Assembly (NCBI GenBank): GCA_963796275.1
Contig: CAWCKY010000001.1
Coordinates: forward strand, 160,001 to 224,000
Reading direction: 5' to 3'
DNA from: an uncultured Acidobacteriota bacterium
GTDB taxonomy: Bacteria; Acidobacteriota; Blastocatellia; RBC074
DNA length: 64,000 nucleotides
In this document: positions 798-64,000 of the stretch, piece after piece
How positions within the stretch are numbered: the first letter of the stretch is position 1
How the letters are laid out: the number at the start of each line of letters is the position of its first letter
Notes under the pieces: generated by a model
Seen by the model: the letters and a program-made list of their open reading frames with translations, nothing else
Databases searched by the model: none
Told to the model about the DNA's origin: nothing
Program-made: the position numbers and the translations under genes

Positions 798-1377
798 TGC
801 CGCCGGGTGCGCCGGACGCGCCGTTACGTCCCAGGAAAGATTTGCGGTCGCAGGTCGCGCTGGCGGGAGCCGGATTCATCGCGGTGAAAACCACGCGATT
901 CGCAAACTCGTTGTTGTAGGCATTGCGCGCAAATACTGCGCCAGTCTCCTTGTCGCGTTCGGTGACGATGAACGGCGCGGACTTTTCGCGAGTGATGCCA
1001 AGCACCAACTCGTTGTATGTCGTGACTGACACTCGCCGGCGCCGGCCGGTGCGATTATGCAGGCGCAATGTCGAAATCTTCACCGGAGCGTCCAGCGGCA
1101 CTAAGACCATCAACTCCTGTGCGATGCCATGACTGGTATGTTCAAAAATCGTGTAGCCCTGTCCGTGCCGGATGACATAAGGCTGCGCCTCGCGCACCGG
1201 CAGCGGCGTCGGCGTCCAGACAGTTCCGGTATCTTCGTCGCGCAGATATATCGTTTCGCCGGGCGGATCGCTCACGGCATCATTTGACCAGGGTGTTAAT
1301 CGATTCTCACGGCTGTTGACAGACCAGGTGTAACCCGCACCCGTCTCAGTTACTAGAAACCCGAAATCTCTGCCCAT
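775..1377 (-). CDS. ndvB: NdvB/Cgs fragment, second GH94 beta-supersandwich domain
   Basis: FGFLVTETGAGYTWSVNSRENRLTPWSNDAVSDPPGE and IRHGQGYTIFEH motifs; joined to its neighbours by single-base insertions near 1375 and 805. Confidence 0.85.
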   Translation of the reverse strand: MGRDFGFLVTETGAGYTWSVNSRENRLTPWSNDAVSDPPGETIYLRDEDTGTVWTPTPLPVREAQPYVIRHGQGYTIFEHTSHGIAQELMVLVPLDAPVKISTLRLHNRTGRRRRVSVTTYNELVLGITREKSAPFIVTERDKETGAVFARNAYNNEFANRVVFTAMNPAPASATCDRKSFLGRNGASGAPGGIASRAAR

Positions 1378-4300
1378 TAGCGATCACGTTTGTCCACGGC
1401 GCGGGCGTCCACTGCCCTTCATTCAAGACCGTGACATACTCGCGCCCTTCCCGTGCAAAGCCGCCAAGACCATTGAAGAATTGCAAATCGGAAACGCTGA
1501 TTGCCTGCTCCTCCGGATAAGTTTGCGCAGGAGAGCGCGGCATGAACGGCGCGGGCGGATCGTTATCTTCAACCGGACGCCGGGCGAGTTGTTCTTCGAG
1601 CGTCCCGCGTTCGGGGACCAGGACGACACGCGCGACGGTATGCAACAGAATCTTGTCCTCATCCGGCATGATGTCTGTGCGGCGCACATAAACACCGCCC
1701 GGTTCGTCCTGTAACGTTTGCAGGCCCGTCGAACGAATCAGCGTCTGTATCTCCTCTTGTAACAACTGCAAATAACTGGGCGGATGGTCATTGAGAATGA
1801 CCAGGTCAATGCGCAGACCCTTGAGACGAAGGTATTCATGACCGCGTAGTACCTGCCGGACCATGTCCAAATCATCAGTCACGCTGATTCGCACCAGCAC
1901 GATCGGAAGGTCGCCGCTGATGCCATATTTCCACAAATTGGATTGCGTCTTTTGATTCAGAGTCAGGACCTTTGAGCGTGGGCGCAATGAATTATCGGAA
2001 TACAATACGCGTCCGGCGAGGCGCTGGAATAAGTGCGCCTCGCGCGCTTCAATGTTCAAGTGGCGCATCTGGATCTGCGCATTCGTCCACGCGAGGCGTT
2101 CTACGCGTTTGAAGATATTGACGTCGTGATACTTGTCCGCAAGCATCAGAATATGTTCACGCGAGTAAGCGACAGCAGTCGAAAAAGTGATGCGCGCCGT
2201 CTCGTTGGGCTTCAAGCGCACGCGCTGGCGGAGGCTGAAAATGGGATCGAGAACCGCGCCGACGGTGTTTGACAGCGGGTGGTCTGCAATCACAGCGAGC
2301 GGCGCCCGGGTGTCGTGACCTCGACCGAGAAACCGATTGCGACTCGTTTCATATTGCACCGCGCCAACAGCGTCGCCCTCGATAACAACCGTGTGAACGG
2401 CGAATATGAGTGTGTCGTTCAGCGAACGCGGGCGGCGACTCGCAATGAGCGAAGTCTCTTCACGAATGAACTCCGTCTCGATGAAAAGATTGCTGAATGC
2501 CGGATGCGCGATGTCTGCAGCGGGCGAAGCCAGCACGACTTCGGCATAGCTCGTCAATTCGATTTCACGCACGCGCGATGAGCGATTCGTTACTGTCACG
2601 CATCGCACCTCGGCGTTGTCTTCAGGAGAGACGACGATGTCCGTCTGCGTCAGGATGCCCGCGTCGAGACGCTTGAAGACCGCACGTTCTTCCATAAACG
2701 TCACTTCATAATTCTGCGAAGCGCGCGCCGATGGTTGATGGCCGGTTGACCAGATTGCGCCGGTGCGCACGTCGCGCATGTAACAAAAGCTGCCCCAGTC
2801 GTCGCAGGTCGAATCTTCGCGCCAGCGCGTGACGGCCTGGTTTCCGCACATCGAATAACCCGCGCCTGCCGATGTCACCATCACCGAATAAGTGCCGTTT
2901 GAAAGCAACTGCGTGCGCGGCGTCGGCAGATTTGGCGACTCGTAACTGACGGCGAGCGGCGCGGTCAGGGTGTTGACGATGCGGCCCATCAACACTTCTT
3001 CGGTGCGGAACTGCGCGATGGGGGCGCCTTGTGGAATGCGCTCTTGTAATAATAACTCCGTGGCCTGAATCAGCGGATCGGCGTGAAACCGCTTTTGCAT
3101 CACATCATCCTGCAGAAGGTTGTCGAGCGCGACGAGGCTCATGCCCTGATGGTGCGCCATGAACGAATGGATGACAACCTCCTGTTGGTTCTGCGGTATC
3201 CGCTCCGGCGTGTAATCAATAGCTTCGTAAAAACCGTAACGGGCGAGCGCGCCGACCTGCGCCAGCTGTTGCATGTTTTGCAGCGCGGCAGCAGGCGCGA
3301 TCATAGCTGCCAGAAACGTCGCATATGGCGCGATCACCAGGTCTTCGCTCAAACCACGTTTCAAACCAAGGCCCGGCACGCCGAACGGACCGTATTGATA
3401 ATTGAAATGCAGGTCGCGCGCGTTGTACGCCGACTCGGAAATGCCCCACGGCACGCCGTGTTTGCGCCCATAAGCGATCTGTTGGGCGACGACGGCTTTG
3501 TAGGTCTGGTCAAGCAATGTGTCCGGATAGTCGCGCGTGACCAGGAGGGGCATCAGATATTCAAACATCGTCGCCGTCCATGACACGAGCGCGCGCCCCG
3601 TGCCGTCAACCTGAGTCAATTGCCGGCCGAGCCGAAACCAATGCTCCTGCGGCACGTCACCCTTCGCAATGGCGACGAGACTGGTGAGACGCGATTCCGA
3701 TGCGAGCAAATCATAAAAAGATTGATCGCGGCGGCCATCGGAGACGTTGTAGCCGATGATGAACATTTTGCGCTCATGATCAAACAGGAACTGAAAGTCC
3801 ATCGATTCGATCATCTCATCGCATGAGTGCGCGAGCGCGCCTGTTCGCCCCAAGAGTTCGGTTGACGCACGCAAAGTGCTTTCGATCGATGTGGTGAGCG
3901 TGTCGAGTCCTCTGAAAAGCGCATCGCGTTCGGATCTTTCAGGAGATTCGGCCAGTTCGAGAGGGCCAAATTCGGCCGACAGCGATTTGATTTCACGAAC
4001 AGCCTGCGCGCAATGCTCGTTAATTTCGCCGACGATTGGCACGCGACTGAATGTTTCAGCAATCTTCTGCCAGCGCCCGACAAACTGCGGCGCGGCGCGT
4101 TCGATGAGCGGCGTGAGATGCTCGGCCAGCGGTGCATTCCAGGAGATCAGCGTATTGAAATCGCGCCGCGCCTCCCGCGTTTGATTGAGCAGCGAGGCGG
4201 TCCAGAAATGAAACTCGCCGAAACCCTCCGCCGTGTCCGCTCCCTGTCCTTGTTCAAGCGCGTGCGCGATATCTTTGACTTCGCCTATCCGCGCCGCCAG

Positions 4301-6952
4301 TTCATCGAAGAACCTCGCCCACTCGCCCAAGTCATCCGGCCCGCCCTTCATCGTCTCGATCAGCGTGACACACACCTCAATCTCTCGCTTCAATTGTTTA
4401 ATGGTGACAACCTGCGTCCGCTCTTTGATCGTGCCGAGCCTTTTCGTCTCTTCGCGTAATAGCGTGAGCGTGTCCGTCAGCCCCTGCAGCAACCGCGCGT
4501 CGAATAATTTTTGTTCTGGTAGTTCAATCGCCGCTTGTTTGACGGCAATTAAATGAGCGGCGAGATTTCCACTATCAACCGTCGAAATATACTGCGGTAT
4601 GAGCGGCTTAAGCGTTGTTGTGTCATACCAGTTGAAGAAATGCCCTTGAAATTTCTCCAGCTTACCGAGCGTCACAAAAGTCAGTTCAAGGCGTTCGACG
4701 GTTTCAAGCAGCCCGACATAACCTAGATCGCGCGCCGCGATAGTCGAAAGCAGATGCAGGCCGATGTTCGTCGGTGACGTGCGGTTGGCGATGATCGGGT
4801 GGGGGTCTTCCTGGAAATTATCAGGCGGCAACCAGTGGTTGTGATCGCCGACGAATGTTTCAAAGAAACGCCACGTGCGCCGCGCGATCAGTCTCATCGT
4901 CTGTCGCCCTTCACTGCTCAGTTCACGACTCGATTCCGTACTCGAACGTCTGGCACGGCTGACGAAAGAGGCGAGAAATGGCGACGCCGCCCAGGCCATC
5001 AAAAACGGGACGGCGAGCCATACCGCCTGCGGTCGAAGAATCATGACGAGAGTTGCCGCGACGATTACGAACAGTGGTCCGGAATAGATCAGATGCCAGA
5101 ACGCCGCGCGGTTCTGTCGGCTCCCGCTCTCCGCTTGCGCCGCCGTCATCCATTCGAGCATGTGCTTTCCTGAAATCAGTTTGCGATAAATGACGCGCGT
5201 CACGGCATCTACCATCAAATAGGCTTGATGCGGTAGAAATACGAGCATCAAAGCGACGCGTTTGGTGTTCGTGCCAAAATCGCCCCAAACTTGCCGGAAA
5301 TAACTGGCCAACGACACACTGCGAGGGGATAAAAATATATCGGTCGTGACATGCGCGTATACCGGAAAGCTACCGACCAGGAGAGCAAACAGCGTCCACC
5401 ATATGGGCAAACCCGGTAGAAATGTCCATGCTCCGACTAGCCACAACAACAGAGAAGGCGCAAGGAGGCTGCGACGCAAGTTATCTAAAATCTTCCAACG
5501 CGAGATTATCGGCAAAATGTTGCGGACCAGCTTCCGCTCGGCGTTCGGAACGCGCGGAAACAGCCAGCGAGCAATCTGCCAATCACCGCGCGTCCAGCGA
5601 TGTTGACGTTTGGCGTAGGTGTCATAACGCGCAGGGTAATCATCAAGTAACTCGATGTCCGACACGAGCGCAGTGCGCGCGTATAAGCCTTCAAACAGAT
5701 CATGGCTGAGCAGCGAATTATCCGGTACCCTGGACTCAAGCACCGCCTGGAAGGCATCTACGTCATATAGACCTTTCCCGATAAAACTCCCCTCAGCGAA
5801 GAGGTCTTGATAGACATCGGAGGCGGCAGTGCTGTAGGGATCAACTCCAGTATTGCCGGAGAAGATGCGCGCGAAACGCGAGCGCGCGCCGCTCTCAAGC
5901 GTGACGCTGACGCGGGGCTGCAGGACACCATAACCGCGCACGACGCGCCGTGTGGTTGAGTCAACCTGTGCGCGGTTGAGCGGGTGCCTGATCGTCGCCA
6001 CCAGCTTGCGCGCCGCATCGCGGGGCAACCGAGTGTCAGTGTCGAGCGTGATCACATAGCGAATACAGGTAAGCAGCGCGACATCTGCGATGGCAACGAC
6101 GAAACTGGTGTCACTTGCGCCGCGTAAAAGGCGATTGAACTCCTCCAATTTTCCCCGCTTGCGCTCCCAACCGATCCATTTGTCTTCAGATTCGTTCCAC
6201 TGGCGGCGACGATGAAACAAGTAGAAACGTTTTGTCGCAGAAGCGTCTCGCTCGTATCGCGCGTTCAGTTTTTCAATGCCGTCGAGAGCGACCCCGAGCA
6301 ACGCGCCGTCGTTCGGCATTTCCTCTGTTGGCGCGTCGGTGAAGTCAGTGAGCAGCGCGAAATAGAACTGCGGGTCCTGATTGGCGAGATAATGGACTTC
6401 GAGTTTTTCGATCAACTCATGCACGGTGGCTTCGGTCGTCAGCATCGTCGGCACAACTATCATCGTGCTCGCCTCGGCTGGAACCTCCGCCTCCTCATTC
6501 ATCTTCGGCAAGACGCGCGGCTCAAAGATGTGCGTCGCGCACCAGTTAAGCAGGCTGACGGCGAGATCGGTCGCTGGAATCAGAGCGAGCAGCGCGATCA
6601 AGCCGAGTTCGGGTGTCGTCGCCCCTGTACGGCCAGCGGCATGAATAAGCAGCGTCAGAATAAACCCGGTGAGCAATCCGAAGACGCCGAGGTAGAAAAG
6701 CACCGGATGCTTAAGTACAGTGCGCCGCGCGCGTTCAATACTCCGGGGGCGATACTTAAACGCGTTTTCCAAATCGGTGAGCCCCTCGTCAATCAGATAA
6801 TAGCCGACGTGCGCGCGTGCCACGTCTTGCGGATCACACTTGTGAGATTGCCTGGCGAGTTCGACAGTGCGGCGAGCGATATCAAGTTCGCCGGCGCGCG
6901 TGCGCTTGGCGATCCGTTCGATCTTCATGGCGGTAACGGTTGCGGGTTGCAA
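1346..6952 (-). CDS. ndvB: Cyclic beta-1,2-glucan synthase NdvB/Cgs core (GT84 synthase, TM segments, glucoamylase-like domain, GH94 N-terminal domain)
   Basis: 1868-aa ORF with GWERKRGKLEEFNRLL, YVITLDTDT, LSHDLFEG, RQHRWTRGDWQ, PPDNFQE, TSPTNIG, YISTVDSGNL, YDLLASESRL, MFEYLMP and FMAHHQGM, all typical of Cgs/NdvB. Confidence 0.93.
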   Translation of the reverse strand: MQPATVTAMKIERIAKRTRAGELDIARRTVELARQSHKCDPQDVARAHVGYYLIDEGLTDLENAFKYRPRSIERARRTVLKHPVLFYLGVFGLLTGFILTLLIHAAGRTGATTPELGLIALLALIPATDLAVSLLNWCATHIFEPRVLPKMNEEAEVPAEASTMIVVPTMLTTEATVHELIEKLEVHYLANQDPQFYFALLTDFTDAPTEEMPNDGALLGVALDGIEKLNARYERDASATKRFYLFHRRRQWNESEDKWIGWERKRGKLEEFNRLLRGASDTSFVVAIADVALLTCIRYVITLDTDTRLPRDAARKLVATIRHPLNRAQVDSTTRRVVRGYGVLQPRVSVTLESGARSRFARIFSGNTGVDPYSTAASDVYQDLFAEGSFIGKGLYDVDAFQAVLESRVPDNSLLSHDLFEGLYARTALVSDIELLDDYPARYDTYAKRQHRWTRGDWQIARWLFPRVPNAERKLVRNILPIISRWKILDNLRRSLLAPSLLLWLVGAWTFLPGLPIWWTLFALLVGSFPVYAHVTTDIFLSPRSVSLASYFRQVWGDFGTNTKRVALMLVFLPHQAYLMVDAVTRVIYRKLISGKHMLEWMTAAQAESGSRQNRAAFWHLIYSGPLFVIVAATLVMILRPQAVWLAVPFLMAWAASPFLASFVSRARRSSTESSRELSSEGRQTMRLIARRTWRFFETFVGDHNHWLPPDNFQEDPHPIIANRTSPTNIGLHLLSTIAARDLGYVGLLETVERLELTFVTLGKLEKFQGHFFNWYDTTTLKPLIPQYISTVDSGNLAAHLIAVKQAAIELPEQKLFDARLLQGLTDTLTLLREETKRLGTIKERTQVVTIKQLKREIEVCVTLIETMKGGPDDLGEWARFFDELAARIGEVKDIAHALEQGQGADTAEGFGEFHFWTASLLNQTREARRDFNTLISWNAPLAEHLTPLIERAAPQFVGRWQKIAETFSRVPIVGEINEHCAQAVREIKSLSAEFGPLELAESPERSERDALFRGLDTLTTSIESTLRASTELLGRTGALAHSCDEMIESMDFQFLFDHERKMFIIGYNVSDGRRDQSFYDLLASESRLTSLVAIAKGDVPQEHWFRLGRQLTQVDGTGRALVSWTATMFEYLMPLLVTRDYPDTLLDQTYKAVVAQQIAYGRKHGVPWGISESAYNARDLHFNYQYGPFGVPGLGLKRGLSEDLVIAPYATFLAAMIAPAAALQNMQQLAQVGALARYGFYEAIDYTPERIPQNQQEVVIHSFMAHHQGMSLVALDNLLQDDVMQKRFHADPLIQATELLLQERIPQGAPIAQFRTEEVLMGRIVNTLTAPLAVSYESPNLPTPRTQLLSNGTYSVMVTSAGAGYSMCGNQAVTRWREDSTCDDWGSFCYMRDVRTGAIWSTGHQPSARASQNYEVTFMEERAVFKRLDAGILTQTDIVVSPEDNAEVRCVTVTNRSSRVREIELTSYAEVVLASPAADIAHPAFSNLFIETEFIREETSLIASRRPRSLNDTLIFAVHTVVIEGDAVGAVQYETSRNRFLGRGHDTRAPLAVIADHPLSNTVGAVLDPIFSLRQRVRLKPNETARITFSTAVAYSREHILMLADKYHDVNIFKRVERLAWTNAQIQMRHLNIEAREAHLFQRLAGRVLYSDNSLRPRSKVLTLNQKTQSNLWKYGISGDLPIVLVRISVTDDLDMVRQVLRGHEYLRLKGLRIDLVILNDHPPSYLQLLQEEIQTLIRSTGLQTLQDEPGGVYVRRTDIMPDEDKILLHTVARVVLVPERGTLEEQLARRPVEDNDPPAPFMPRSPAQTYPEEQAISVSDLQFFNGLGGFAREGREYVTVLNEGQWTPAPWTNVIANGQRFRVSSN

Positions 6953-54975: not shown

Positions 54976-56298
54976 TCAGGCTTCCTTCAAGATTTGACTT
55001 AACGCCGAGACAGTTCGATCGATCTCTTCCATTGTGTTGTAGATATGCGGGCAGAAACGGACTCCGCCGGTGGCTGCCGCGGCTATTCGGTGTTTGGAAT
55101 ACAGCAGCTCATAAATCTTCCGGCTGTCTTTTCCATCAAATGTTAAGATGCAAACGCCAGCGCTCAATTCAGGCCTGGATGATGTCAGCAGCCTGGCGGT
55201 CGGAAGCTTGGAGCAACCATCTTTTAACGCCGCCGCCAACACACGGATACGCGCCTCGATTCGGGCCGGGCCAATCAGGTTATGAAAATCCACCGCAGTA
55301 CCCATTGCCGATACCGCGGCGTCGTCGCGCTGACCCAGCGTCTCGAATTTGCGCGCGCCTTTCAACGCTGTCTCGACTTTATCACCCCACCCGACTCCGA
55401 CCACGCTCGGCCATATCTCGCCTATACGTTCGCGCCGTACGTAGAGCAAACCCGCCTCCTTCGGCCCCATAAACCATTTGTGAGCGCTTCCTGAGTAGGA
55501 GTCGCACCCCAGTTCGTGAAGGTCGATCTTGAGCGAACCGAACGTTTGTGCGCCGTCAACGTGACTGTAGATGCCTCGTTCGCGGGCTATCCGGCACAAC
55601 TCTTTGCTCGGCAATTTCACTCCCGTTGTGTTCGAAACATCTGTGATAGACAAAACCTTGGTCTTAGGCGAGAGAGCCGTCTGAAAAATCTTGAGCATCT
55701 CATCAACGCTTTCCGGCGGATTCCTTAGACTTACCCGTTTGACAGTGAACCCGATACGAGCAGCTTGCACGTCCCATGCGATATTGTTGGTCGGATGATT
55801 CTGGTCGAAGATGACAACTTCATCGCCCGCTTTCAATTTGAGGCCGTTAACTATGATGTTGTTGGCTTCAGAGGTGTTTCTGACGATGGCGATCTCATCA
55901 TCGGATGCAGTCAGCAAAGCCGCCAGTTTATGGCGGGCTTCCTCCCTGAACGTCTCGAATTTGGCGCGACTCTGAAACGAGACATCGGCGTCGAGATCGT
56001 CGCCGAGGCGAAAAACACTCTCTCTGACCATATGCGGCGAGGGGCAGAGGTTTGCCGCGTTGAGCATGATGTAGTTCGGTTTGATCGGAAACTGCCCTTT
56101 AACGAGCCGCCAGTACGATTCGTTTGTGGAATCTCCGTCGGTCAGTTTTTCAGACACTCTTGAAAGAGCATCTCTTGACCCCTCTCGGCTTAACGAGGGA
56201 AGAATCGGAAATGCGGCCACGCTTCCGGCAAGACCTCTTATAAAAGTACGGCGATTTGAGGACGGTGAGAATCGATCGTATTTTTCTGTGTATTTCAT
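54976..56298 (-). CDS. Tat-exported class V PLP-dependent aminotransferase (isopenicillin-N epimerase / cysteine desulfurase-like)
   Basis: NRRTFIRG Tat motif; [25 protein letters not shown] (PLP lysine) and [10 protein letters not shown]; GGAGG RBS. Confidence 0.9.
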
Positions 56299-57471
56299 CC
56301 TTAACCTCCATGACGATCGGATTGATCCAGCTGACCATTCATTCGTACGCTCGGATAATACTAGCCCAATTTTAGGTCAAATCTTGTGAAAATAAATGTC
56401 GCTCTCGAATGAAGAGAGTCGGTGTGCAAATTAATAGCCAGAGGAACACGTTAATTTGCGCGTACAAAAATTATTATTCAAATTTCTTATTCTCTTGCCT
56501 TGTTCCGATTCAATGTTCAGAATATCCCCGCAACTCAGTGGCGTATGCAGGTGGGGGCCAGACGCATGACATCATCGAGGTCGCTAGGACCTCGTGGTAG
56601 AGCATTTCAAATACGTCCATTCAGGCGATGTGAGGCAATTGTCAGTCTTAGTCGGAGAAGTGGTTCAGCAGGTATCTAGGTACGCCATGGCTGAATCTTG
56701 AGCTTTTTATTACACCGATGAGTTCAGGGATAGGATTGTTCCTGGAGCCGGCCGGGTGACGCAGCAATAGTTTGGACCGATCGAATAGAGATCGGGGTGC
56801 TAATGATGTTGCGTTCAGCATTTTTCTACCATCGCCGTCAGTATTCATCAAATTTTGGTAAGCCCGCTGCAAGGCTGGTTGAAATTGAACCATGCATTGC
56901 AGCGGGAGTTTGCGCATCTCGCGCTGCTGAGGACGTCGTGTTAAATCTAACGCTGTTCTGAGCGGAAATTGAATTTTGAAGATTGCAATGATCAACCTGA
57001 TGGGGTAAGGACATGTTATAAAACCGACCTCCAGCTCAGGATCGTTAATTCATCTCTCCCAGTTCAATTTAGTATGTTCAGATTGTTCAGTACGATCATT
57101 GTGTTAATTAGGTTCAGTAAAAGGCCGAGCTGACTGTAGCAACAGGTGGCCGATTTTTTTCAATTGGAGACCGTCATATTGTTTATGTTTCGGTATCTCT
57201 CAATCTTTTATGTAATGAATCGTCAGATAATTTCGTATCTAATATAGAAATATTTTTATAGAAATATTTTGTAGCGATAGAGGCTGATTTTTAACATTTG
57301 TGACCCAGGACCGCTGATTTATATAATAGTTTGCGATCATTACTGGTTTGACCTGATGCTCGGCTTTAATCTCAACTCATGAATCTGGGGCGCGGCGACA
57401 CACTATCAACTCATCCGCGCAATGGTCAGTGTTGCTGAATCTTTTCATCATCCCCCGACCTTCCGGAGCGA

Positions 57472-58026
57472 ATGAAAGACTGGGATCTCTTCTATAAATG
57501 GCTGAACCCTGATCCAGACCTCGCAGCGTCTGAATACACGAGGCTTCGACGCCTGCTGATCTCCTTTTTCAAAGGCCGGTTTTGCGCCGACGCCGAAGGA
57601 TTGGCCGATCAGACGATCGAGCGGGTCGCACAACTGCTGCCCAAATACGGTAATGAACTGCCCAGCTACCCTCGCCGCTTTTGTTATGGTGTCGCCCGAT
57701 ACATTTATAAAGAATACTTGCGCAATGAAGTTTCCAGGAATACAGGGGAACTGCCTGACTTATCGCCTGCCACCTATGATTCCGAGTTGGCCGTAGAGAA
57801 AGAGGCGTTGGACAGGTGTCTTCATCATTGTTTGGGGGGGCTCGACAACCAGAAACGGGAAATGTTCATTCGCTATTACCTTGTCAGCTCGGAAGAGAAG
57901 AGCGTTCTTCACCAAAAGATGGCCGAGGAGATGGGTATCTCGATCACTGCGCTGCGCCTGCAAATACTTCGTATCAAAGAGAAACTGCGTGCCTGCATTA
58001 CTGAATGTCGGCAGCGGGAGGGTTGA
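57472..58026 (+). CDS. ECF-type RNA polymerase sigma-70 factor
   Basis: 184 aa; sigma2-like (DAEGLADQTIERV, FCYGVARYIYKEYLR) and sigma4-like (CLGGLDNQKREMFIRYY, MAEEMGISITALRLQILRIKEKLRAC) regions; GGAG RBS. Confidence 0.88.
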   Translation: MKDWDLFYKWLNPDPDLAASEYTRLRRLLISFFKGRFCADAEGLADQTIERVAQLLPKYGNELPSYPRRFCYGVARYIYKEYLRNEVSRNTGELPDLSPATYDSELAVEKEALDRCLHHCLGGLDNQKREMFIRYYLVSSEEKSVLHQKMAEEMGISITALRLQILRIKEKLRACITECRQREG

Positions 58027-58052
58027 GTTTAATGAAGAGTTTAAAATATAGA

Positions 58053-58082
58053 TGAAATTTTTACCCACCGCCTGTCATATAT
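58053..58082 (+). promoter_or_regulatory. Putative ECF sigma promoter TGAAATTTTT-N9-CTGTCATATAT
   Basis: Same motif and spacing recur at 61936..61965; lies between the sigma and CHAT genes. Confidence 0.6.
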
Positions 58083-58160
58083 TTCTGGATAGCAAATGCC
58101 CATGACGTACCTACCCCTCCCATTTATAAACTAGCTGTAACTTTGGCAAAAGAGCTAGCT

Positions 58161-61100
58161 ATGGATACACGATCGGAACAAGATAATCTATTCAGATGGT
58201 ATCTGCTTGGTGCTACTTCACCCGAAGAAGATGAACAGATAGAGCAGCGCCTGCGGAACCAAGAAATCAATGATGAGTTGCTGCTCGCCGAAGAAGAGCT
58301 GATCGACGATTACGCTCGCGGTTTGCTGCCTCTATATGAACGCGAATTGTTCGAAGAGAATTTTCTTACAACGCCCGAACGGCTGAAGAACTTGCTGATG
58401 GCGCAAGCAGCGGTTCGATATGCGGCAATCCAAAATGTACCGACACCGGAAGAACTTACAGATTTATCCACCAGTACGGTGGATGAACGCGGGGCGGAAC
58501 GGTTGCCTGATCCTTCCAGTCCGGTCGCGGCGACTCGAGAGACTCGACGGAGCGACTGGTGGCAAGTGTTATTTGAACACCGTTGGAAGATCGCTACCTA
58601 TGCAAGTCTGCTTCTGGTAATCGGGTTAGGGAGTCGGTGGGTGCCGGGGCTGCTTAGTGACTCGGAAGTAGCCAGGGGGCTGACCGCTTTGAACAATGCT
58701 TTTCGCGAACAACGGCCGACCGAGGCCCGAATGACAGGATTTGGTTATGCCCTTTCCAACGTAACCCGCGGCGGTCAAGCGGGGAATCAAAAAGAAGTGG
58801 CCGATTATCTCCAGTTGGAAGAAGCTGAATTGCTCTTGCGAAAGGCTGCGAGAGAAAAAGAGGGTGCTGAAACACTCCACGCATTGGGCAAGTTGTACCT
58901 GGCCAAGAGGGAATTCGATAAGGCTATAGAACAATTCGAAAAAGCGATCACCTATAACCCTAATAACGCGCAAACGCACAGCGATTTGGGAGCCGCACTG
59001 GTCGAGAAGCTAAAAAAATCCGGAGACCGGATGAGAGACAGGCCGGAAGCCGTTGATAAGGCGTTTTCTCACATCAACAGAGCACTGGAATTGGACGAAA
59101 ATTTGCTCGAAGCGCTCTTCAACCGTGCGCTGTTATATCAACTCCAGAATCTGTATGGACCAGCGCGAGAAGCGTGGAAGAAATATCTCGAGAAGGATAG
59201 TAGCTCCAGGTGGGCAGAGGAAGCTAATGCATACCTCAAAGAGTTACAACAGAAATCATCAAGCAGTGGCGAGGAAAAATACGAAGGCCTATACCGTGAT
59301 TTTCTGCAAGCTAGAGGGACTGGAGAAGATGATAAAGCCTGGCGGTTATACAATGATAGCTATCAGCGTCATGGAAACTACATCACCAATAAGTTAATCG
59401 ACGAGTTTCTTGAGTTCTCAAAAGAAGATAAACAGCAGGAAGCAGAAGATCGCATCCAGACAGTTGAATACATAGCGCGTTTATCCCAGCAGAAATCGGA
59501 AGATCTTTTTCTTTCCGACTTGGCTTCAGCTTATCGTCAAGCGAATAAAGGGCAACGTGAAATGCTCGCACAAGGCCGAAGCTTACGGCAGTCAGCATAT
59601 GATCTAAGTTTCAACAAGTCTCAACACCAAAAGGCTATCGATGCTTACCTCAAGGCTAAAATTCTTTTTACACAGGGGCAGGCGCCTCCGGAAGTGATCA
59701 CTGCAGAATATTGGATAGCCGAGGCCTTTCTGAGACAGTCTAATCACAATAAAAGTCTGATGGGTTTATTATCGGTTGCTGAAACCTGTGAGCGCCAACG
59801 CTATCGTTGGCTGCGAGCACTTAGCTTCAATCGCATTGCTGGCGTACTTGGCGATCAGTTCTCATACTCTGAAGCCTTGCGGTACTGTTTCGAATCGGCG
59901 AGTGAGTTCTCACTTATTGGCGATAAGAGTGGGCAGTTGAGAGCATTGATCAATCAGGCAAGCCTTTATAGATTTGTAGGTAAATACCATGACGCTCTGA
60001 ATCTTTGTAAAAGCTCCTGGCATCTGGCGAATGAAGTGGCAGCGGATGACCGTTGGACCATAATTCTATATGCGATCGCCGGTTGGAGCTACTATAGACT
60101 TGGGCTTTACTCCGCTGCACTTGAATTTCAAAAAGAGTCAGTGAGGATAGCGGAGAAGATAGACGTACCTCAAGCGATCTCGCGTTATAGCGTCTATGCA
60201 GGACTCATCTATAGCAGATTGAAAGATTATGACACGGCGATTTCATCTATTGAACGCGGGCTGAACATAGGTCAGCAACAGAAACACTCATCTGCCGACC
60301 AGGATATGATCAACTATGCACGACTGTATCTTGGTCAGGTCTACCGCGAAGCGGGAAGGCCTGCTGAAGCAATAAAAGTTCATGAGCAGGCAGCTGAGTT
60401 CTATAGGAAGAGCGGATGGGAGGCGAATTCCTATATAACTGCAAAGGAAATTTTGCTTGACCAAATTGCATTGGGTGATATCTCCTCCGCCCATCGACAA
60501 CTCGGTCTTGTATTAGAATTCCTCGAAGAACACCGAAAGAAGATCCTCCAACAGAGCTATCGCAACAGCTTCTTCGACATGGAACAAGGCGTGTATGACA
60601 TTGCGATCGGCTTTGCTTATGAAACTCTGGACCAACCTGAGCAGGCGTTTGATTACTCTGAATTGAGCCGAGCCAGATCCCTGCTCGACTCCGCGACATT
60701 GACCAGTCAAATAATTAACGATCTCGCAATTCCCGAAGAGGTACTCTCAGGTTCGACTCGCCCAATGACACTCGCTGAGATTCAGCCCCACATTCCAGTG
60801 GAGACTCAAATCCTGCAATATGCAGTGCTCAAAGATCGTGTGGTTGCCTGGGTTGTTACCAGAGAGCGGGTTGAGAGTCGCGCAATCGCGCTCGATGCAG
60901 AGGAACTGTCTACCAGGGTGAAGGCCTATTTGAGTCAGGTATCAAAGCCCGCCGCCGAAGTCGATCAGAGTCTGCGCAAAATGTCTTCTGCGCTCTATCA
61001 GAGTCTCATCGCTCCGGTCGAAAACTTACTGGATAAGAAACGAAAGCTTTGCATTGTAGCCGACAAGATTCTCAATTTTTTGCCCTATAGTTCCCTGATC

Positions 61101-61850
61101 TCACCGCGCACAGGGAGGTATCTGATCGAGGACTATTCTCTGCTTTTTGCACCCAGTTCTACGCTATTCGTCCGCACCACTGAGAACGCCGAACGAAAGG
61201 CGAGAACGGGAACAGAAAGGCTTCTGAGTGTTGGTAATCCGGTTTTCGATCAAAACGTATTTGACCTTCCGGATCTGTCATCAGCCGCCACCGAAGCCAA
61301 GGCAATAAATACTATTTACGGCGGTGGTATCTCCTTAGTCGGCAAATATGCGACAAAAAAATCGCTATTGAAGGAGATTGAGCGATCCGACGTCGTGCAT
61401 CTGGCTATGCATTACGACCCGGACGAAAGATCGCCGATGCTATCGAGATTGATTCTCGCGAGAGGTTCGAACTCAAAGGATGAGGCGGAAAGCACATTAG
61501 CCCTACACGAAGTTTATGGATTGAAGCTATCGAAGGCTAGACTGGTAGTCCTTTCGTCCTGTCAGACCAATGCCGAACAATATTTTGACGGGGAAGGATC
61601 GATCGGTTTGTCTCATGCATTCGAATCGGTTGGTGTGCCTCTCGTAGTCTCCAGCCTCTGGCAAGCCAACTCCGACACGACCGCAAAACTTATGATCAGA
61701 TTTCATTCCCTCCGCAAGATGTCTGGTGCATCGACAGTCGATGCCCTCAGAGAAGCCCAAATCGAGATGCTGCGCGCCTTGGATAAGCGACTGCAGCACC
61801 CTTACTACTGGGCCGCATTCATCGTAGGTGGTGGATACAGTCGATTTTAG
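58161..61850 (+). CDS. Membrane-anchored TPR-CHAT (caspase-like) protease with an N-terminal anti-sigma-like domain
   Basis: Acidic helical N-domain (YLLG..EEELIDDYARG..FEENFL), one TM helix (IATYASLLLVIGLG), many TPRs, ELSRARSLLD, and a CHAT domain with VVHLAMH, LVVLSSCQT, VVSSLW and HPYYWAAF. Confidence 0.9.
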   Translation: MDTRSEQDNLFRWYLLGATSPEEDEQIEQRLRNQEINDELLLAEEELIDDYARGLLPLYERELFEENFLTTPERLKNLLMAQAAVRYAAIQNVPTPEELTDLSTSTVDERGAERLPDPSSPVAATRETRRSDWWQVLFEHRWKIATYASLLLVIGLGSRWVPGLLSDSEVARGLTALNNAFREQRPTEARMTGFGYALSNVTRGGQAGNQKEVADYLQLEEAELLLRKAAREKEGAETLHALGKLYLAKREFDKAIEQFEKAITYNPNNAQTHSDLGAALVEKLKKSGDRMRDRPEAVDKAFSHINRALELDENLLEALFNRALLYQLQNLYGPAREAWKKYLEKDSSSRWAEEANAYLKELQQKSSSSGEEKYEGLYRDFLQARGTGEDDKAWRLYNDSYQRHGNYITNKLIDEFLEFSKEDKQQEAEDRIQTVEYIARLSQQKSEDLFLSDLASAYRQANKGQREMLAQGRSLRQSAYDLSFNKSQHQKAIDAYLKAKILFTQGQAPPEVITAEYWIAEAFLRQSNHNKSLMGLLSVAETCERQRYRWLRALSFNRIAGVLGDQFSYSEALRYCFESASEFSLIGDKSGQLRALINQASLYRFVGKYHDALNLCKSSWHLANEVAADDRWTIILYAIAGWSYYRLGLYSAALEFQKESVRIAEKIDVPQAISRYSVYAGLIYSRLKDYDTAISSIERGLNIGQQQKHSSADQDMINYARLYLGQVYREAGRPAEAIKVHEQAAEFYRKSGWEANSYITAKEILLDQIALGDISSAHRQLGLVLEFLEEHRKKILQQSYRNSFFDMEQGVYDIAIGFAYETLDQPEQAFDYSELSRARSLLDSATLTSQIINDLAIPEEVLSGSTRPMTLAEIQPHIPVETQILQYAVLKDRVVAWVVTRERVESRAIALDAEELSTRVKAYLSQVSKPAAEVDQSLRKMSSALYQSLIAPVENLLDKKRKLCIVADKILNFLPYSSLISPRTGRYLIEDYSLLFAPSSTLFVRTTENAERKARTGTERLLSVGNPVFDQNVFDLPDLSSAATEAKAINTIYGGGISLVGKYATKKSLLKEIERSDVVHLAMHYDPDERSPMLSRLILARGSNSKDEAESTLALHEVYGLKLSKARLVVLSSCQTNAEQYFDGEGSIGLSHAFESVGVPLVVSSLWQANSDTTAKLMIRFHSLRKMSGASTVDALREAQIEMLRALDKRLQHPYYWAAFIVGGGYSRF

Positions 61851-61935
61851 TCAGATAATGATTTCGGGAAAAAATTTGCAATTGGAGTATCGCCATTACA
61901 GCTGCCGACGACACGAGCCTGGGTGATAAATGTTG

Positions 61936-61965
61936 TGAAATTTTTTGCACATGTCTGACATATAT
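61936..61965 (+). promoter_or_regulatory. Putative ECF sigma promoter TGAAATTTTT-N9-CTGACATATAT
   Basis: Matches 58053..58082 (TGAAA, 18-nt spacer, CATATAT); points towards the gene at 62528. Confidence 0.6.
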
Positions 61966-62075
61966 ATACGGGAGCCAGACACCGGACATTGAATATGCTC
62001 TCAGCTTGAAACTAAAAGAGAATTTCCTCAGGTGCCACTCCTCGGCAGGATTTCGTAGTAGGGAGAGAAATAAAA

Positions 62076-62318
62076 TGAGAAATGTGCAAAATAAAGCTAA
62101 TGGAAGCAACGTTGGCGGATCTAAGCGCCAGCGGCGCGGAATGTTTATAGCACTCGATCATTTAAATCTCGCAAGCTCCGGAGGAGCTGCATATCGACAT
62201 TCAGCTGTCGTTCTTCCAGAGCTTGGATGAACATAATCATCAAAGCTATAAACATTGGGCTCCTCCAGAGCTGCTCAGGAGTTATGGGTAACGACCAACC
62301 TTAATTTGCACACTCTTC
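62076..62318. mobile_element. MITE/REPIN-like non-autonomous element, copy B
   Basis: Ends TGAGAAATGTGCAAAATAAAG / CCTTAATTTGCACACTCTTC; internal AGCGCCAGCGGCGCGGAATGTTTATAG and AGCTCCGGAGGAG shared with copy A; AAATAAAA on both flanks. Confidence 0.7.
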
Positions 62319-62527
62319 AAATAAAAAATCACTGCTGATCGTAAGTGGATGTTGCACCTTTTTCTAAATGAAATATGCGGGATTGGAACAGAAATAACCG
62401 CGGATATTCACAGATGCGACGGATCAACCGGATTATTCGTAACGATTCGTCGCAGCCGTGAATATCTGTGCGGAATTATCTTTCTCAATGTCGCTTGCTC
62501 CAATTTCAATAGCGAAGGAGAAGAACA

Positions 62528-63571
62528 ATGGTAGAAGTGCAAGGCAATATTGTGAGACTTTATCTGGAAGGCTTGATGTTCTTTGCGCACAATGAGGAAC
62601 AAAAACAACTTGAAGCCGGCATCCTCAATGTTGACGATGTGCATAATTTGAAAGTCAGAACATTTAGTCGAAAGTCGGCAAAACCAGGCGCATGTTTTGA
62701 TGAAGTCTGGAAAGAAGGAGAGCCTGAGTACATTCCCGATAGCGATCTTCGGCTCTATGAGCAAGGGGAACTCACCATTTTGTCCCATGGAGGTGAGTCC
62801 AAAAATATAGTCTCACCAATGGTGCCCCGAAACCGTGAAGTATGGATGCCTCTCAATTTGATCCCTGATTTTGAAGACATTGTTGGAAGTAGGGTGAAGT
62901 TGGATAGAAGCAAGGTGAAACCGGTCTTGAGCATTGCCGGTGGCAATTTCTTCTCGGTACTCAGGCCCGATCACGTGGAAGCTGCGAAGCCTCTTGAGAA
63001 AAGAGCCGACACGCGCGGATTTATCCCGACTTATCGTCTGGAAAAAGATCAACTTAGACACTTTAAAGCCAAGGCGAGTAGAGAAATTGTATCAGTAGAA
63101 GACCTGATAAATTTGGGGGTTGCAGCCAAGGATCTTGGCATTCGGTCGTACACCGCAGCAACTATGATCACATTAAATAAAGACGAGGAGTTGGTTTGCG
63201 TGCTGAAAAGCGAGCAAGGCGAGCAGAGGGAGCTCTTTAGAGTAAAGTATGCCCCCAACCGTGAAGCTAAAGTAGTACTGGTAAACGGCGTGACTAAGCA
63301 TGAAGACAGTTCACACCTACATTCTCACTCTGGAGGGGGGGATAGCGATCTCGTAAACTTTTTTCACTTTCTTCACTATTACGAAGCCATAAAAAAAATC
63401 AGTGAGAAGAAGCAATTTCTTCTGGCTAATGAAGAGATGTTAGTGGAATTCTCGAAGAATGATACTGAGAACGAGGTTGAGACCTTGCAAGGGGAAGAGG
63501 AAAATCCTACCGGAGGTAACGATCCTACTTGCCCGGCAGTGACTATGTCAAGGAGCTTGTTTACTGATTAG
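62528..63571 (+). CDS. Hypothetical 347-aa protein downstream of the CHAT protease
   Basis: AAGGAG RBS; long ORF in AT-rich DNA; no signal peptide; His-rich loop, FHFLHYY motif, acidic linker and a terminal DPTCP peptide. Confidence 0.85.
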   Translation: MVEVQGNIVRLYLEGLMFFAHNEEQKQLEAGILNVDDVHNLKVRTFSRKSAKPGACFDEVWKEGEPEYIPDSDLRLYEQGELTILSHGGESKNIVSPMVPRNREVWMPLNLIPDFEDIVGSRVKLDRSKVKPVLSIAGGNFFSVLRPDHVEAAKPLEKRADTRGFIPTYRLEKDQLRHFKAKASREIVSVEDLINLGVAAKDLGIRSYTAATMITLNKDEELVCVLKSEQGEQRELFRVKYAPNREAKVVLVNGVTKHEDSSHLHSHSGGGDSDLVNFFHFLHYYEAIKKISEKKQFLLANEEMLVEFSKNDTENEVETLQGEEENPTGGNDPTCPAVTMSRSLFTD

Positions 63572-64000
63572 AAGCAGGACAATAGGCTAGTAGCCCGCAT
63601 CTGTGAACGCGATTACACATGGACAGATCCTGAATTTCGCTAAGAGCTCTGGGGTTGCGTTTTCACTTGATGCGGGCACTTTGGCGACAATTGGACAGAG
63701 TGTTTTCACCTGGAGTCCGCAGTCCCGAACAATGTGGACGCGCTCTCACGCAACACTCTTACTTTAAGTCGTACGTGGATTTGTAGGAAAAATGTTAATT
63801 CGAATATTGTGTTGATCAACCTGTTAGGAATATGGAAATATCTATGGGCCCCGCTTCTTCTCAGAATCGTTGATTCTCTTCTTTCATATCATTCATTGGT
63901 TTCCTTAGCTGCCGACAAAAATGTGGCTGGCAATGGCTGATATCCTTCCCAGCTTCCAATAAATAACTTACAAATGGCTTCTGATCTCCTCGCTTCCGCT

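Follow-up and report, generated by a model that had tools for sequence, protein, structure and literature searches.

How might a bacterium couple a caspase-like protease to the release of a sigma factor? The question is raised by three co-oriented genes on the + strand of the 64,000-nucleotide (nt) stretch of DNA analysed here (the window), which belongs to a 9.46-Mb genome (G000) of the Acidobacteriota, apparently of the Blastocatellia. The genes encode, in order, a sigma factor of 184 amino acids (aa), a 1229-aa protein combining tetratricopeptide repeats with a CHAT domain (TPR-CHAT) and a 347-aa orphan protein, called gene 3 below. We conclude that the locus is probably a sigma/anti-sigma operon of the DdvS/DdvA type, in which the TPR-CHAT part of the anti-sigma factor faces the periplasm; our confidence that the CHAT domain would also cleave its own chain is much lower. 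In silico support comes from the architecture, topology and fold of the large protein, the conservation of its catalytic dyad, its pairing with the sigma factor through the N-terminal domain, and the conservation of both a promoter-like motif and the gene triad. An earlier, sequence-only reading of this DNA had picked out the three co-oriented genes, the single transmembrane helix, the TPR arrays and the His/Cys dyad of the CHAT domain, and all of these are present. Its proposal that one polypeptide serves as anti-sigma N-domain, transmembrane helix, TPR sensor and CHAT protease also holds up in silico. The elements of the locus are listed below; coordinates are positions in the window unless given for the genome (G000) or for a numbered locus (L).

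57472..58026, + strand: sigma gene, extracytoplasmic function (ECF) type by family model, 184 aa (open reading frame (ORF) and TIGR02937)
58053..58082, + strand: promoter-like motif 1, between the sigma and anti-sigma genes (motif scan)
58143 (start TTG) or 58161 (start ATG) to 61850, + strand: large gene (ORF)
58161..58430, + strand: predicted N-terminal anti-sigma-like domain, residues 1-90 (complex model, synteny)
58587..58661, + strand: predicted single transmembrane segment, residues ~143-167 (hydropathy, flank charges)
58674..60965, + strand: predicted extracytoplasmic scaffold and TPR superhelix, residues 172-935 (AlphaFold2 model, fold matches)
60978..61829, + strand: CHAT caspase-like protease domain (PF12770)
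61410-61412 and 61560-61562, + strand: dyad codons for His1084 and Cys1134
61936..61965, + strand: promoter-like motif 2, ~560 nt upstream of gene 3 (motif scan)
62528..63571, + strand: gene 3, 347-aa orphan protein (ORF)

The 184-aa protein qualifies only just as an ECF (group 4) sigma factor by family model. NCBIfam TIGR02937 matches residues 20-175 with 43.4 bits (cut-off 42.9), Pfam Sigma70_r4_2 reaches 20.1 bits, under its cut-off of 25.7, the Pfam region-2 model finds no match on the protein, and the model for type III-E sigma factors gives 15.4 bits where its cut-off is 100. Its family is large, with 3339 representatives at E ≤ 0.001. Cysteines occupy positions 38, 71, 116, 120, 175 and 179; in 42 aligned sequences C120 is invariant and C38, C116, C175 and C179 are nearly so. 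These conserved residues, which include CxxxC twice, may form a metal or redox site in the sigma factor itself.

The gene carrying the putative anti-sigma domain begins 135 nt past the sigma stop codon, counted from the ATG start (58161), which yields the 1229-aa form and agrees with the N-termini of relatives. Its first 100 residues contain no Cys and no His, which rules out a CHCC zinc anti-sigma domain, and the corresponding stretch holds no Cys or a single one in all 45 relatives. Pfam zf-HC2 has no match on the large protein; three of five short paralogues match it weakly (21.2, 22.4 and 22.8 bits; cut-off 22.2). The sequence-only reading had proposed that this N-terminal region contacts the sigma factor, and a complex model of the sigma factor with residues 1-100 supports it, with a score of 0.78 in three runs, compared with 0.00 for the best of three controls. 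In a benchmark, 116 of 157 solved complexes reached this score, compared with 2 of 215 mismatched pairs. The partner has a predicted local distance difference test (pLDDT) value of at least 82, contact agreement is at least 86%, and the predicted interface involves both halves of the sigma factor (residues 28-80 and 110-176). These models suggest that the large protein likely holds the sigma factor through its residues 1-100.

Gene order points the same way. Of 401 genomes sampled from the phylum, 41 encode the N-domain, which usually opens a protein of 270-440 aa. Among 29 loci, one best match for every other genome considered, 28 include a sigma gene of the same family, and in 26 it lies 50-200 nt upstream on the same strand. 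Within the own genome, six of eight N-domain matches directly follow a sigma paralogue.

The large protein has one hydrophobic segment, at residues ~143-167. Its own best 19-residue window scores 1.42, below most relatives, and 40 of 45 relatives have their top hydropathy window at this position. Across the 45 relatives, the flanks of the segment carry a mean net charge of +1.8 (N side) and +0.07 (C side). Based on hydropathy and the positive-inside rule, we predict that the protein crosses the membrane once and that its large C-terminal part is periplasmic; the flanking charges place the N-terminus inside and TPR-CHAT outside the membrane. The cytoplasmic protease implied by the sequence-only reading is thus not what these charges indicate. 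The juxtamembrane stretch is conserved, with A180, R185 and R190 invariant.

The C-terminal part matches CHAT (PF12770) at E 4.7e-57 and many TPR families. The dyad lies in the motifs HLAMH, whose second His is residue 1084, and LSSCQ, whose Cys is residue 1134; H1080, H1084 and C1134 are invariant in all 45 aligned relatives, down to ~35% identity. The residue after the catalytic His is Tyr, which had been flagged earlier as a possible sign of an inactive enzyme. Because HLAxHY is the family consensus, the Tyr is not a lesion of this copy. An AlphaFold2 model of residues 172-1229, built from 45 sequences, has a pLDDT of 91.5 and a predicted template modelling score (pTM) of 0.88. In a Foldseek search of the PDB with this model, the best match was 8rot_A, annotated 'transmembrane anti-sigma factor DdvA' (E 1.2e-20; template modelling (TM) scores 0.58/0.67; 16% identity), followed by 8rw5 (also DdvA) and then by separases and Csx29. 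VIA-align placed Csx29 first (Z 31.4; root-mean-square deviation (rmsd) 5.0 over 459 residues), with separases at about Z 27.

These matches lead to a described system. In Myxococcus xanthus, DdvS is an ECF sigma factor and DdvA its single-pass anti-sigma factor, with a zinc-bound N-domain and a dimer-forming periplasmic scaffold-TPR-CHAT part of ~900 residues; according to the available sections of the DdvA report, DdvA is the sole characterised anti-sigma factor with TPR-CHAT (PMC11506125). The sequence-only reading knew of no characterised system with such a layout; DdvS/DdvA, as described there, has it. The same sections propose that a signal induces self-cleavage by CHAT in trans, followed by cleavage by RseP, with proof awaited, and describe the CHAT site as resting and, for want of a three-helix element, 'incomplete' (PMC11506125). 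DdvS/DdvA controls a CBASS/CRISPR island and can give phage resistance, as far as the sections available of the two sources describe it (PMC11506125, PMC6061681).

The locus studied here shares with DdvS/DdvA the sigma-then-anti-sigma order, a small cytoplasmic N-domain with predicted contacts to sigma regions 2 and 4, one transmembrane helix, a periplasmic scaffold-TPR-CHAT part with a His-Cys dyad, and an uncharacterised protein encoded next in the operon, in addition to the Foldseek match. It differs in size (1229 aa compared with 991 aa for DdvA), in host phylum, here Acidobacteriota, and in lacking a sequence-level CHAT match. The available text of PMC11506125 reports DdvA-like proteins, defined by a zinc N-domain plus TPR-CHAT, only from Myxococcota and one Comamonas. 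The promoter reported for DdvS/DdvA is GTAA-n16-CGT in the part of PMC6061681 that describes it, whereas the candidate here is TGAAATTT-N13-GNCATA; moreover, the studied locus has no motif upstream of its sigma gene and no CBASS or CRISPR genes nearby (PADLOC, 40 ORFs). We regard the locus as an acidobacterial, zinc-free variant on the DdvS/DdvA scheme, accompanied by a conserved orphan partner and by split relatives that occur naturally. Our literature searches found no description of such proteins in Acidobacteria.

Other known systems resemble it in part. The type III-E craspase shares the TPR-CHAT fold of Csx29 and the coupling of a protease to sigma release. Csx29, however, is cytoplasmic and RNA-activated via Cas7-11, whereas the protease studied here is membrane-anchored and predicted to be periplasmic, and neither Cas7-11 (gRAMP) nor Csx30 is encoded among the 40 ORFs around the locus. 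Bacterial gasdermins are encoded beside a protease, and the small beta-rich orphan protein beside TPR-CHAT, and beside subtilases in relatives, recalls that arrangement; CHAT, however, is predicted to lie across the membrane from gene 3, and neither PADLOC nor the fold searches made with a gene-3 model of pLDDT 66.1 matched gene 3 to a gasdermin. The links to gasdermins and to type III-E CRISPR drawn by the sequence-only reading are not supported by any Cas or gasdermin match in these searches. Csx29 is cited in the available sections of PMC11506125 as cleaving Csx30 bound to a sigma factor. From the same sections, self-cleaving anti-sigma factors (ferrioxamine signalling in Pseudomonas, mechano-sensing in Firmicutes) make their own first cut before a site-2 protease acts; their cut is non-enzymatic and constitutive (PMC11506125), whereas here a caspase-like domain would cut on signal. 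ECF54 sigma factors lie near carboxypeptidase, subtilase and CHAT proteins, are actinobacterial and have no anti-sigma factor (PMC8999054); the present system resembles them in the repeated position of the sigma gene beside CHAT proteins, and sometimes subtilases, and differs in its clear anti-sigma domain. The words 'CHAT', 'caspase' and 'TPR' are absent from the main text of Casas-Pastor 2021.

To place the triad among its relatives, we took a neighbourhood census of four fetched loci, five more fused loci and the 29 N-domain loci described above. With residues 1-420 as query, at least 417 of 7999 candidate proteins proved related (E ≤ 0.001), most of them ~1200 aa long; the named relatives among the matches listed are from Blastocatellia, Pyrinomonadaceae or Acidobacteria. 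In a Blastocatellia metagenome-assembled genome (L009), a sigma gene precedes a 1239-aa TPR-CHAT protein and, after 26 nt, a gene-3 homologue at 29% identity; on a metagenome contig (L012), the same order holds with a 1214-aa TPR-CHAT protein and a homologue at 32% identity after 30 nt. In L011, a spacer separates the end of a CHAT gene from a gene-3 homologue (53% identity). For six more pairs of gene-3 and CHAT relatives, the longest contigs have equal lengths, which is circumstantial evidence. The five more distant fused loci (L049-L053), recognised as N-domain matches in open frames of 1176-1222 aa, all have a sigma gene upstream, and in four a 276-286-aa protein follows the CHAT gene, with one ORF between in L053; L052 is without it. 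The triad that the sequence-only reading wanted surveyed thus recurs in L009, L012 and L011, and a homologous third gene follows in four of these five loci.

The 276-286-aa proteins form a second family of 92 clusters, which hhalign relates to the gene-3 family over 131 columns in the N-terminal half (probability 95.6%, E 1.2e-8); with shallower profiles the same comparison gave probabilities of 23% and then 59%. Later motifs common to both can be seen by eye: HFHMYY compared with FHFLHYY, and DPxxC near the C-terminus. The second family has no PDB profile match, and PADLOC matches none of 38 members. A subtilase gene follows the gene-3-like gene in L050 (6799-8289) and L051 (6550-8061), and a weakly S64/Nal1-like gene does so in L053 (7612-8907). 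These extra proteases recall the C25-type peptidase of the ddvS-ddvA operon.

The own genome also contains the module in pieces. Eight of its ten sigma-family loci lie within 5 kb of a CHAT match. At five split loci, a TPR-CHAT protein of 845-1179 aa (Pfam-confirmed) is encoded next to the sigma gene, and at four of these a 315-344-aa protein with the same N-domain follows the sigma factor; at the fifth, the sigma ORF looks broken (C4:1029105-1029530) and no short anti-sigma was found. One further locus has a sigma factor and a short anti-sigma only. One of the split-module CHAT proteins also has a SPOR domain. In other genomes, the 1.5-kb flank includes a CHAT C-terminus at 15 of the 29 loci, in most cases immediately before the sigma gene. 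The studied locus is the fused form of a module also found in pieces. The own-genome loci are listed here.

G000, loci L043-L048: C3:642500, C4:983500, C7:968500, C1:1216500, C4:1025500 and C4:624000

We then examined the sequences between the genes. The motif TGAAATTTTT-N7-G-N-CTG-N-CATATAT stands at 58053-58082 and 61936-61965; these are its only two matches in the window at up to three mismatches, and 100 shuffles gave none. With the central 13 bases free, the two sites are the only exact matches in the whole genome. A still looser expression gave five genome matches and one in the reversed control, and among the five only the two known sites contain the full TGAAATTT box. Across relatives, TGAAATTT-N13-GNCATA stands in register at five sites in four loci. 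Three of the sites separate the sigma gene from the anti-sigma gene (own locus, L009 and L012), and two lie in the spacer from the CHAT gene to gene 3 (own locus and L011); in comparison with L011, motif 2 is the best-conserved stretch of the own spacer. In L009 and L012 one site would serve both genes, because gene 3 follows the CHAT gene after 26-30 nt. The TGAAATTT motif was not found in the more distant fused loci L049-L053, which is expected because their sigma factors would have other specificities. This layout fits negative feedback on the anti-sigma factor together with induction of gene 3, provided that the sites act as promoters. The sequence-only reading had described a motif shared by genes 2 and 3 and had the sigma factor induce both; a conserved motif precedes both, the second copy ~560 nt ahead of gene 3, and that it works as a promoter is what we infer from it. 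Transcription of the sigma gene may start from a separate site, found by consensus scan at 10 of 12 positions; such scans gave 11 sites in the region where 10.6 are expected, which makes this one weak on its own.

57298..57327, + strand: sigma-70-like promoter candidate, TTGTGA-18-TATAAT

Gene 3 is a conserved companion of the fused anti-sigma factor, because a homologous third gene recurs in the fused loci. Its conserved His/Cys motifs are FHFLHYY and TGGxxPxCPAV, and it has no signal peptide. It has no match above cut-off in Pfam, NCBIfam or PADLOC; in a Pfam search with 25 members of its family, a twin-arginine translocation (Tat) signal appeared in five and the remaining rows were at chance level. 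The best E in a PDB profile search with the family was 0.16, and the best ESM Atlas score was 0.86, under the level that counts. The gene-3 model (mean pLDDT 66.1) gave TM scores of at most 0.12 with Foldseek and a best Z of 3.4 in a wide VIA-align search; neither gasdermin nor Csx30 appeared in these fold searches, made with a model of that modest quality. The family comprises 34 clusters in 5.8 billion proteins and occurs in one of the 401 genomes of the phylum, the own genome alone. In a soil metatranscriptome run (X2), two 151-nt contigs are identical to gene 3 (62820-62970 and 63159-63307), with DNA carry-over possible.

The 560-nt leader of gene 3 contains an imperfect inverted repeat, GCTCCGGAGGAGC / GCTCCTCCAGAGC (62170-62275), and no Rfam family matches within 56300-64000. 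It also contains a 51-codon ORF with a strong ribosome-binding site (62075-62230), which we set aside, as L011 does not conserve it.

A tandem paralogue of gene 3, with 66% identity, lies ~1 kb downstream, past the end of the window (gene 4, G000:C1:224584-225594). Its relatives start with a twin-arginine signal, RRSFLKGIAGSAA; RRSFLKG occurs in P0013, P0016, P0019, P0022 and P0029, and PF10518 matches 5 of 25 members. As assembled here, the signal ORF and the mature part lie one frame apart, and the frames switch at the ILP/TFARSG junction.

G000:C1:224381-225594 (L008:7382-8598): gene 4 including the Tat signal ORF

A contig from run X3, 90-95% similar, has one extra base at this junction. 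Other genes nearby are frame-split as well: an ABC-F gene is divided after LSGG into two overlapping ORFs (L008:10892-12836), and another gene is divided by frame changes into three (L008:14269-15498). This suggests single-base indel errors in the assembly, and because the nearby genes are also split, an assembly error is as likely an explanation of the gene-4 frame change as a real lesion. None of the sequencing runs holds more than 6% of the sampled words, so none represents this strain, and missing cover is uninformative.

The locus is flanked by genes of metabolism and of the cell wall, which encode an aldehyde-oxidase-type molybdoenzyme, a DinB protein, a class-V aminotransferase, a monofunctional transglycosylase, an M23 peptidase, an ABC-F protein and a PQQ-like propeller. 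When 40 ORFs (37 in the window and three downstream) were scanned with PADLOC at E ≤ 1e-5, the class-V aminotransferase alone matched, as SspA/DndA-like, which is a general family likeness; no Cas or gasdermin gene was found among them, as the sequence-only reading had said of the window, and a separate scan of the three focal genes with defence models gave no match. There is no sign of a defence island near the locus. The aminotransferase gene (54976-56298, minus strand) has a twin-arginine-like N-terminal signal close to that of the gene-4-type paralogues. A 1868-aa ORF at 1346-6952 (minus strand) has no PADLOC match. An M50 peptidase with a full-length match (188 bits) is encoded elsewhere on the same contig, and the genome encodes TatC.

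Taken in order, the proposed mechanism would run as follows. The N-terminal ~90 residues of the 1229-aa protein would keep the 184-aa sigma factor in the cytoplasm. Activation of His1084/Cys1134 would come from a periplasmic signal, probably a peptide or protein that binds to the TPRs, and CHAT would then act as a site-1 protease that clips the anti-sigma factor in the juxtamembrane linker of its own chain or in its dimer partner. An RseP-type M50 protease would next cut within the membrane and free the sigma factor, which would use the two TGAAATTT-N13-GNCATA promoters to make more anti-sigma factor (negative feedback) and the 347-aa protein, and probably also to induce the tandem paralogue, which is Tat-exported in relatives. 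Here we infer the signal, the self-cleavage, the intramembrane step, the promoter function and the action of gene 3.

Several points weigh against this interpretation. The locus is known from sequence and models alone. The sigma factor clears the TIGR02937 cut-off by just 0.5 bit, and since many sigma/anti-sigma complexes have already been solved, the pass of the complex model may partly stem from likeness to them. The link to DdvA is one of fold and architecture at 16% identity, and at the sequence level it is thin: phmmer with CHAT alone finds no DdvA, its best match being a metacaspase at E 0.1, and the family profile matches 8rot_B via the TPR part alone (E 1.6e-9). DdvA is also absent among the 50 VIA-align matches listed, which Csx29 heads, in a search that left 66 of 1000 chains unaligned. 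DdvA has a CHCC zinc site (ZASD) and the N-domain studied here is without one, and self-cleavage by CHAT is a proposal even for DdvA in the available sections of PMC11506125. No copy of the motif was found upstream of the sigma gene or gene 4, which speaks against classical autoregulation, and motif 2 sits ~560 nt away from gene 3, to which no function could be assigned by sequence or fold searches.

What the CHAT domain cuts, and whether it cuts at all, can be read in other ways. It could act on other periplasmic proteins and spare its own chain, with the sigma factor released through a separate site-1 protease or a conformational change; one candidate substrate would be the Tat-exported gene-4-type paralogue, alone or with gene 3 as passenger. 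The Tat signal in gene-4-type relatives (5 of 25 match PF10518) would bring these proteins into the same compartment as TPR-CHAT, the split modules indicate that CHAT can also work in a secreted protein of its own, and the subtilases of L050 and L051 and the weakly serine-protease-like gene of L053 make the cutting of other partners plausible. In those split modules, however, the CHAT gene adjoins the sigma/anti-sigma pair and not a gene-3-like gene, and the single-copy, ancestral-looking gene 3 of L009 and L012, like the whole second family, has no signal peptide, so that most partners would miss a periplasmic protease. We hold this explanation to be unlikely. The opposite view, that CHAT is a non-catalytic sensor or scaffold and that signalling proceeds only by conformational change or through a classical site-1 protease, could draw on the Tyr in place of the usual Gly after the catalytic His and on the resting DdvA site without its three-helix element, as the available sections of its report describe it (PMC11506125). 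Against these stand His1084 and Cys1134, invariant in all 45 relatives as expected under selection for catalysis, and an HY pair that is family consensus and no recent change, which together make this view highly improbable.

A different role altogether would be that of an anti-phage or programmed-death module, in which an infection signal at the envelope frees the sigma factor to produce gene 3 as an effector and, in some relatives, an activating protease. DdvS/DdvA, with its control of CBASS/CRISPR and its phage resistance in the source sections cited above, offers a precedent; the extracytoplasmic part resembles Csx29 (Z 31.4), and a subtilase follows the gene-3-like gene in two of the five other fused loci. 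Yet PADLOC finds nothing for gene 3, for gene 4 or for any of 38 members of the second family, defence models match only the class-V aminotransferase among the 40 surrounding ORFs, the neighbouring genes belong to metabolism and the cell wall, and the gene-3 fold searches, albeit with a model of pLDDT 66, returned no gasdermin or Csx30. We therefore consider a defence role distinctly unlikely, and the DdvS/DdvA-type sigma/anti-sigma operon remains our preferred interpretation.

These analyses place the architecture of DdvS/DdvA in another phylum, now with a zinc-free anti-sigma domain, and beside it a conserved partner protein, the one element of the locus without a matching family or fold. 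As a tentative and admittedly doubtful extension, the Acidobacteriota may hold a large unrecognised class of ECF modules in which CHAT serves as an integral protease for the first cut, either within the anti-sigma chain or as a secreted protein encoded next to the sigma/anti-sigma pair. The fused form would come with an orphan His/Cys superfamily of 260-350 aa, sometimes with a second protease or with Tat export, and this partner would be an effector or a new protease-activated pro-protein. The coexistence of split and fused forms helps to tie the protease to the signalling pair, and it offers a genetic handle on the question raised by DdvA, namely whether CHAT is the first cutter.

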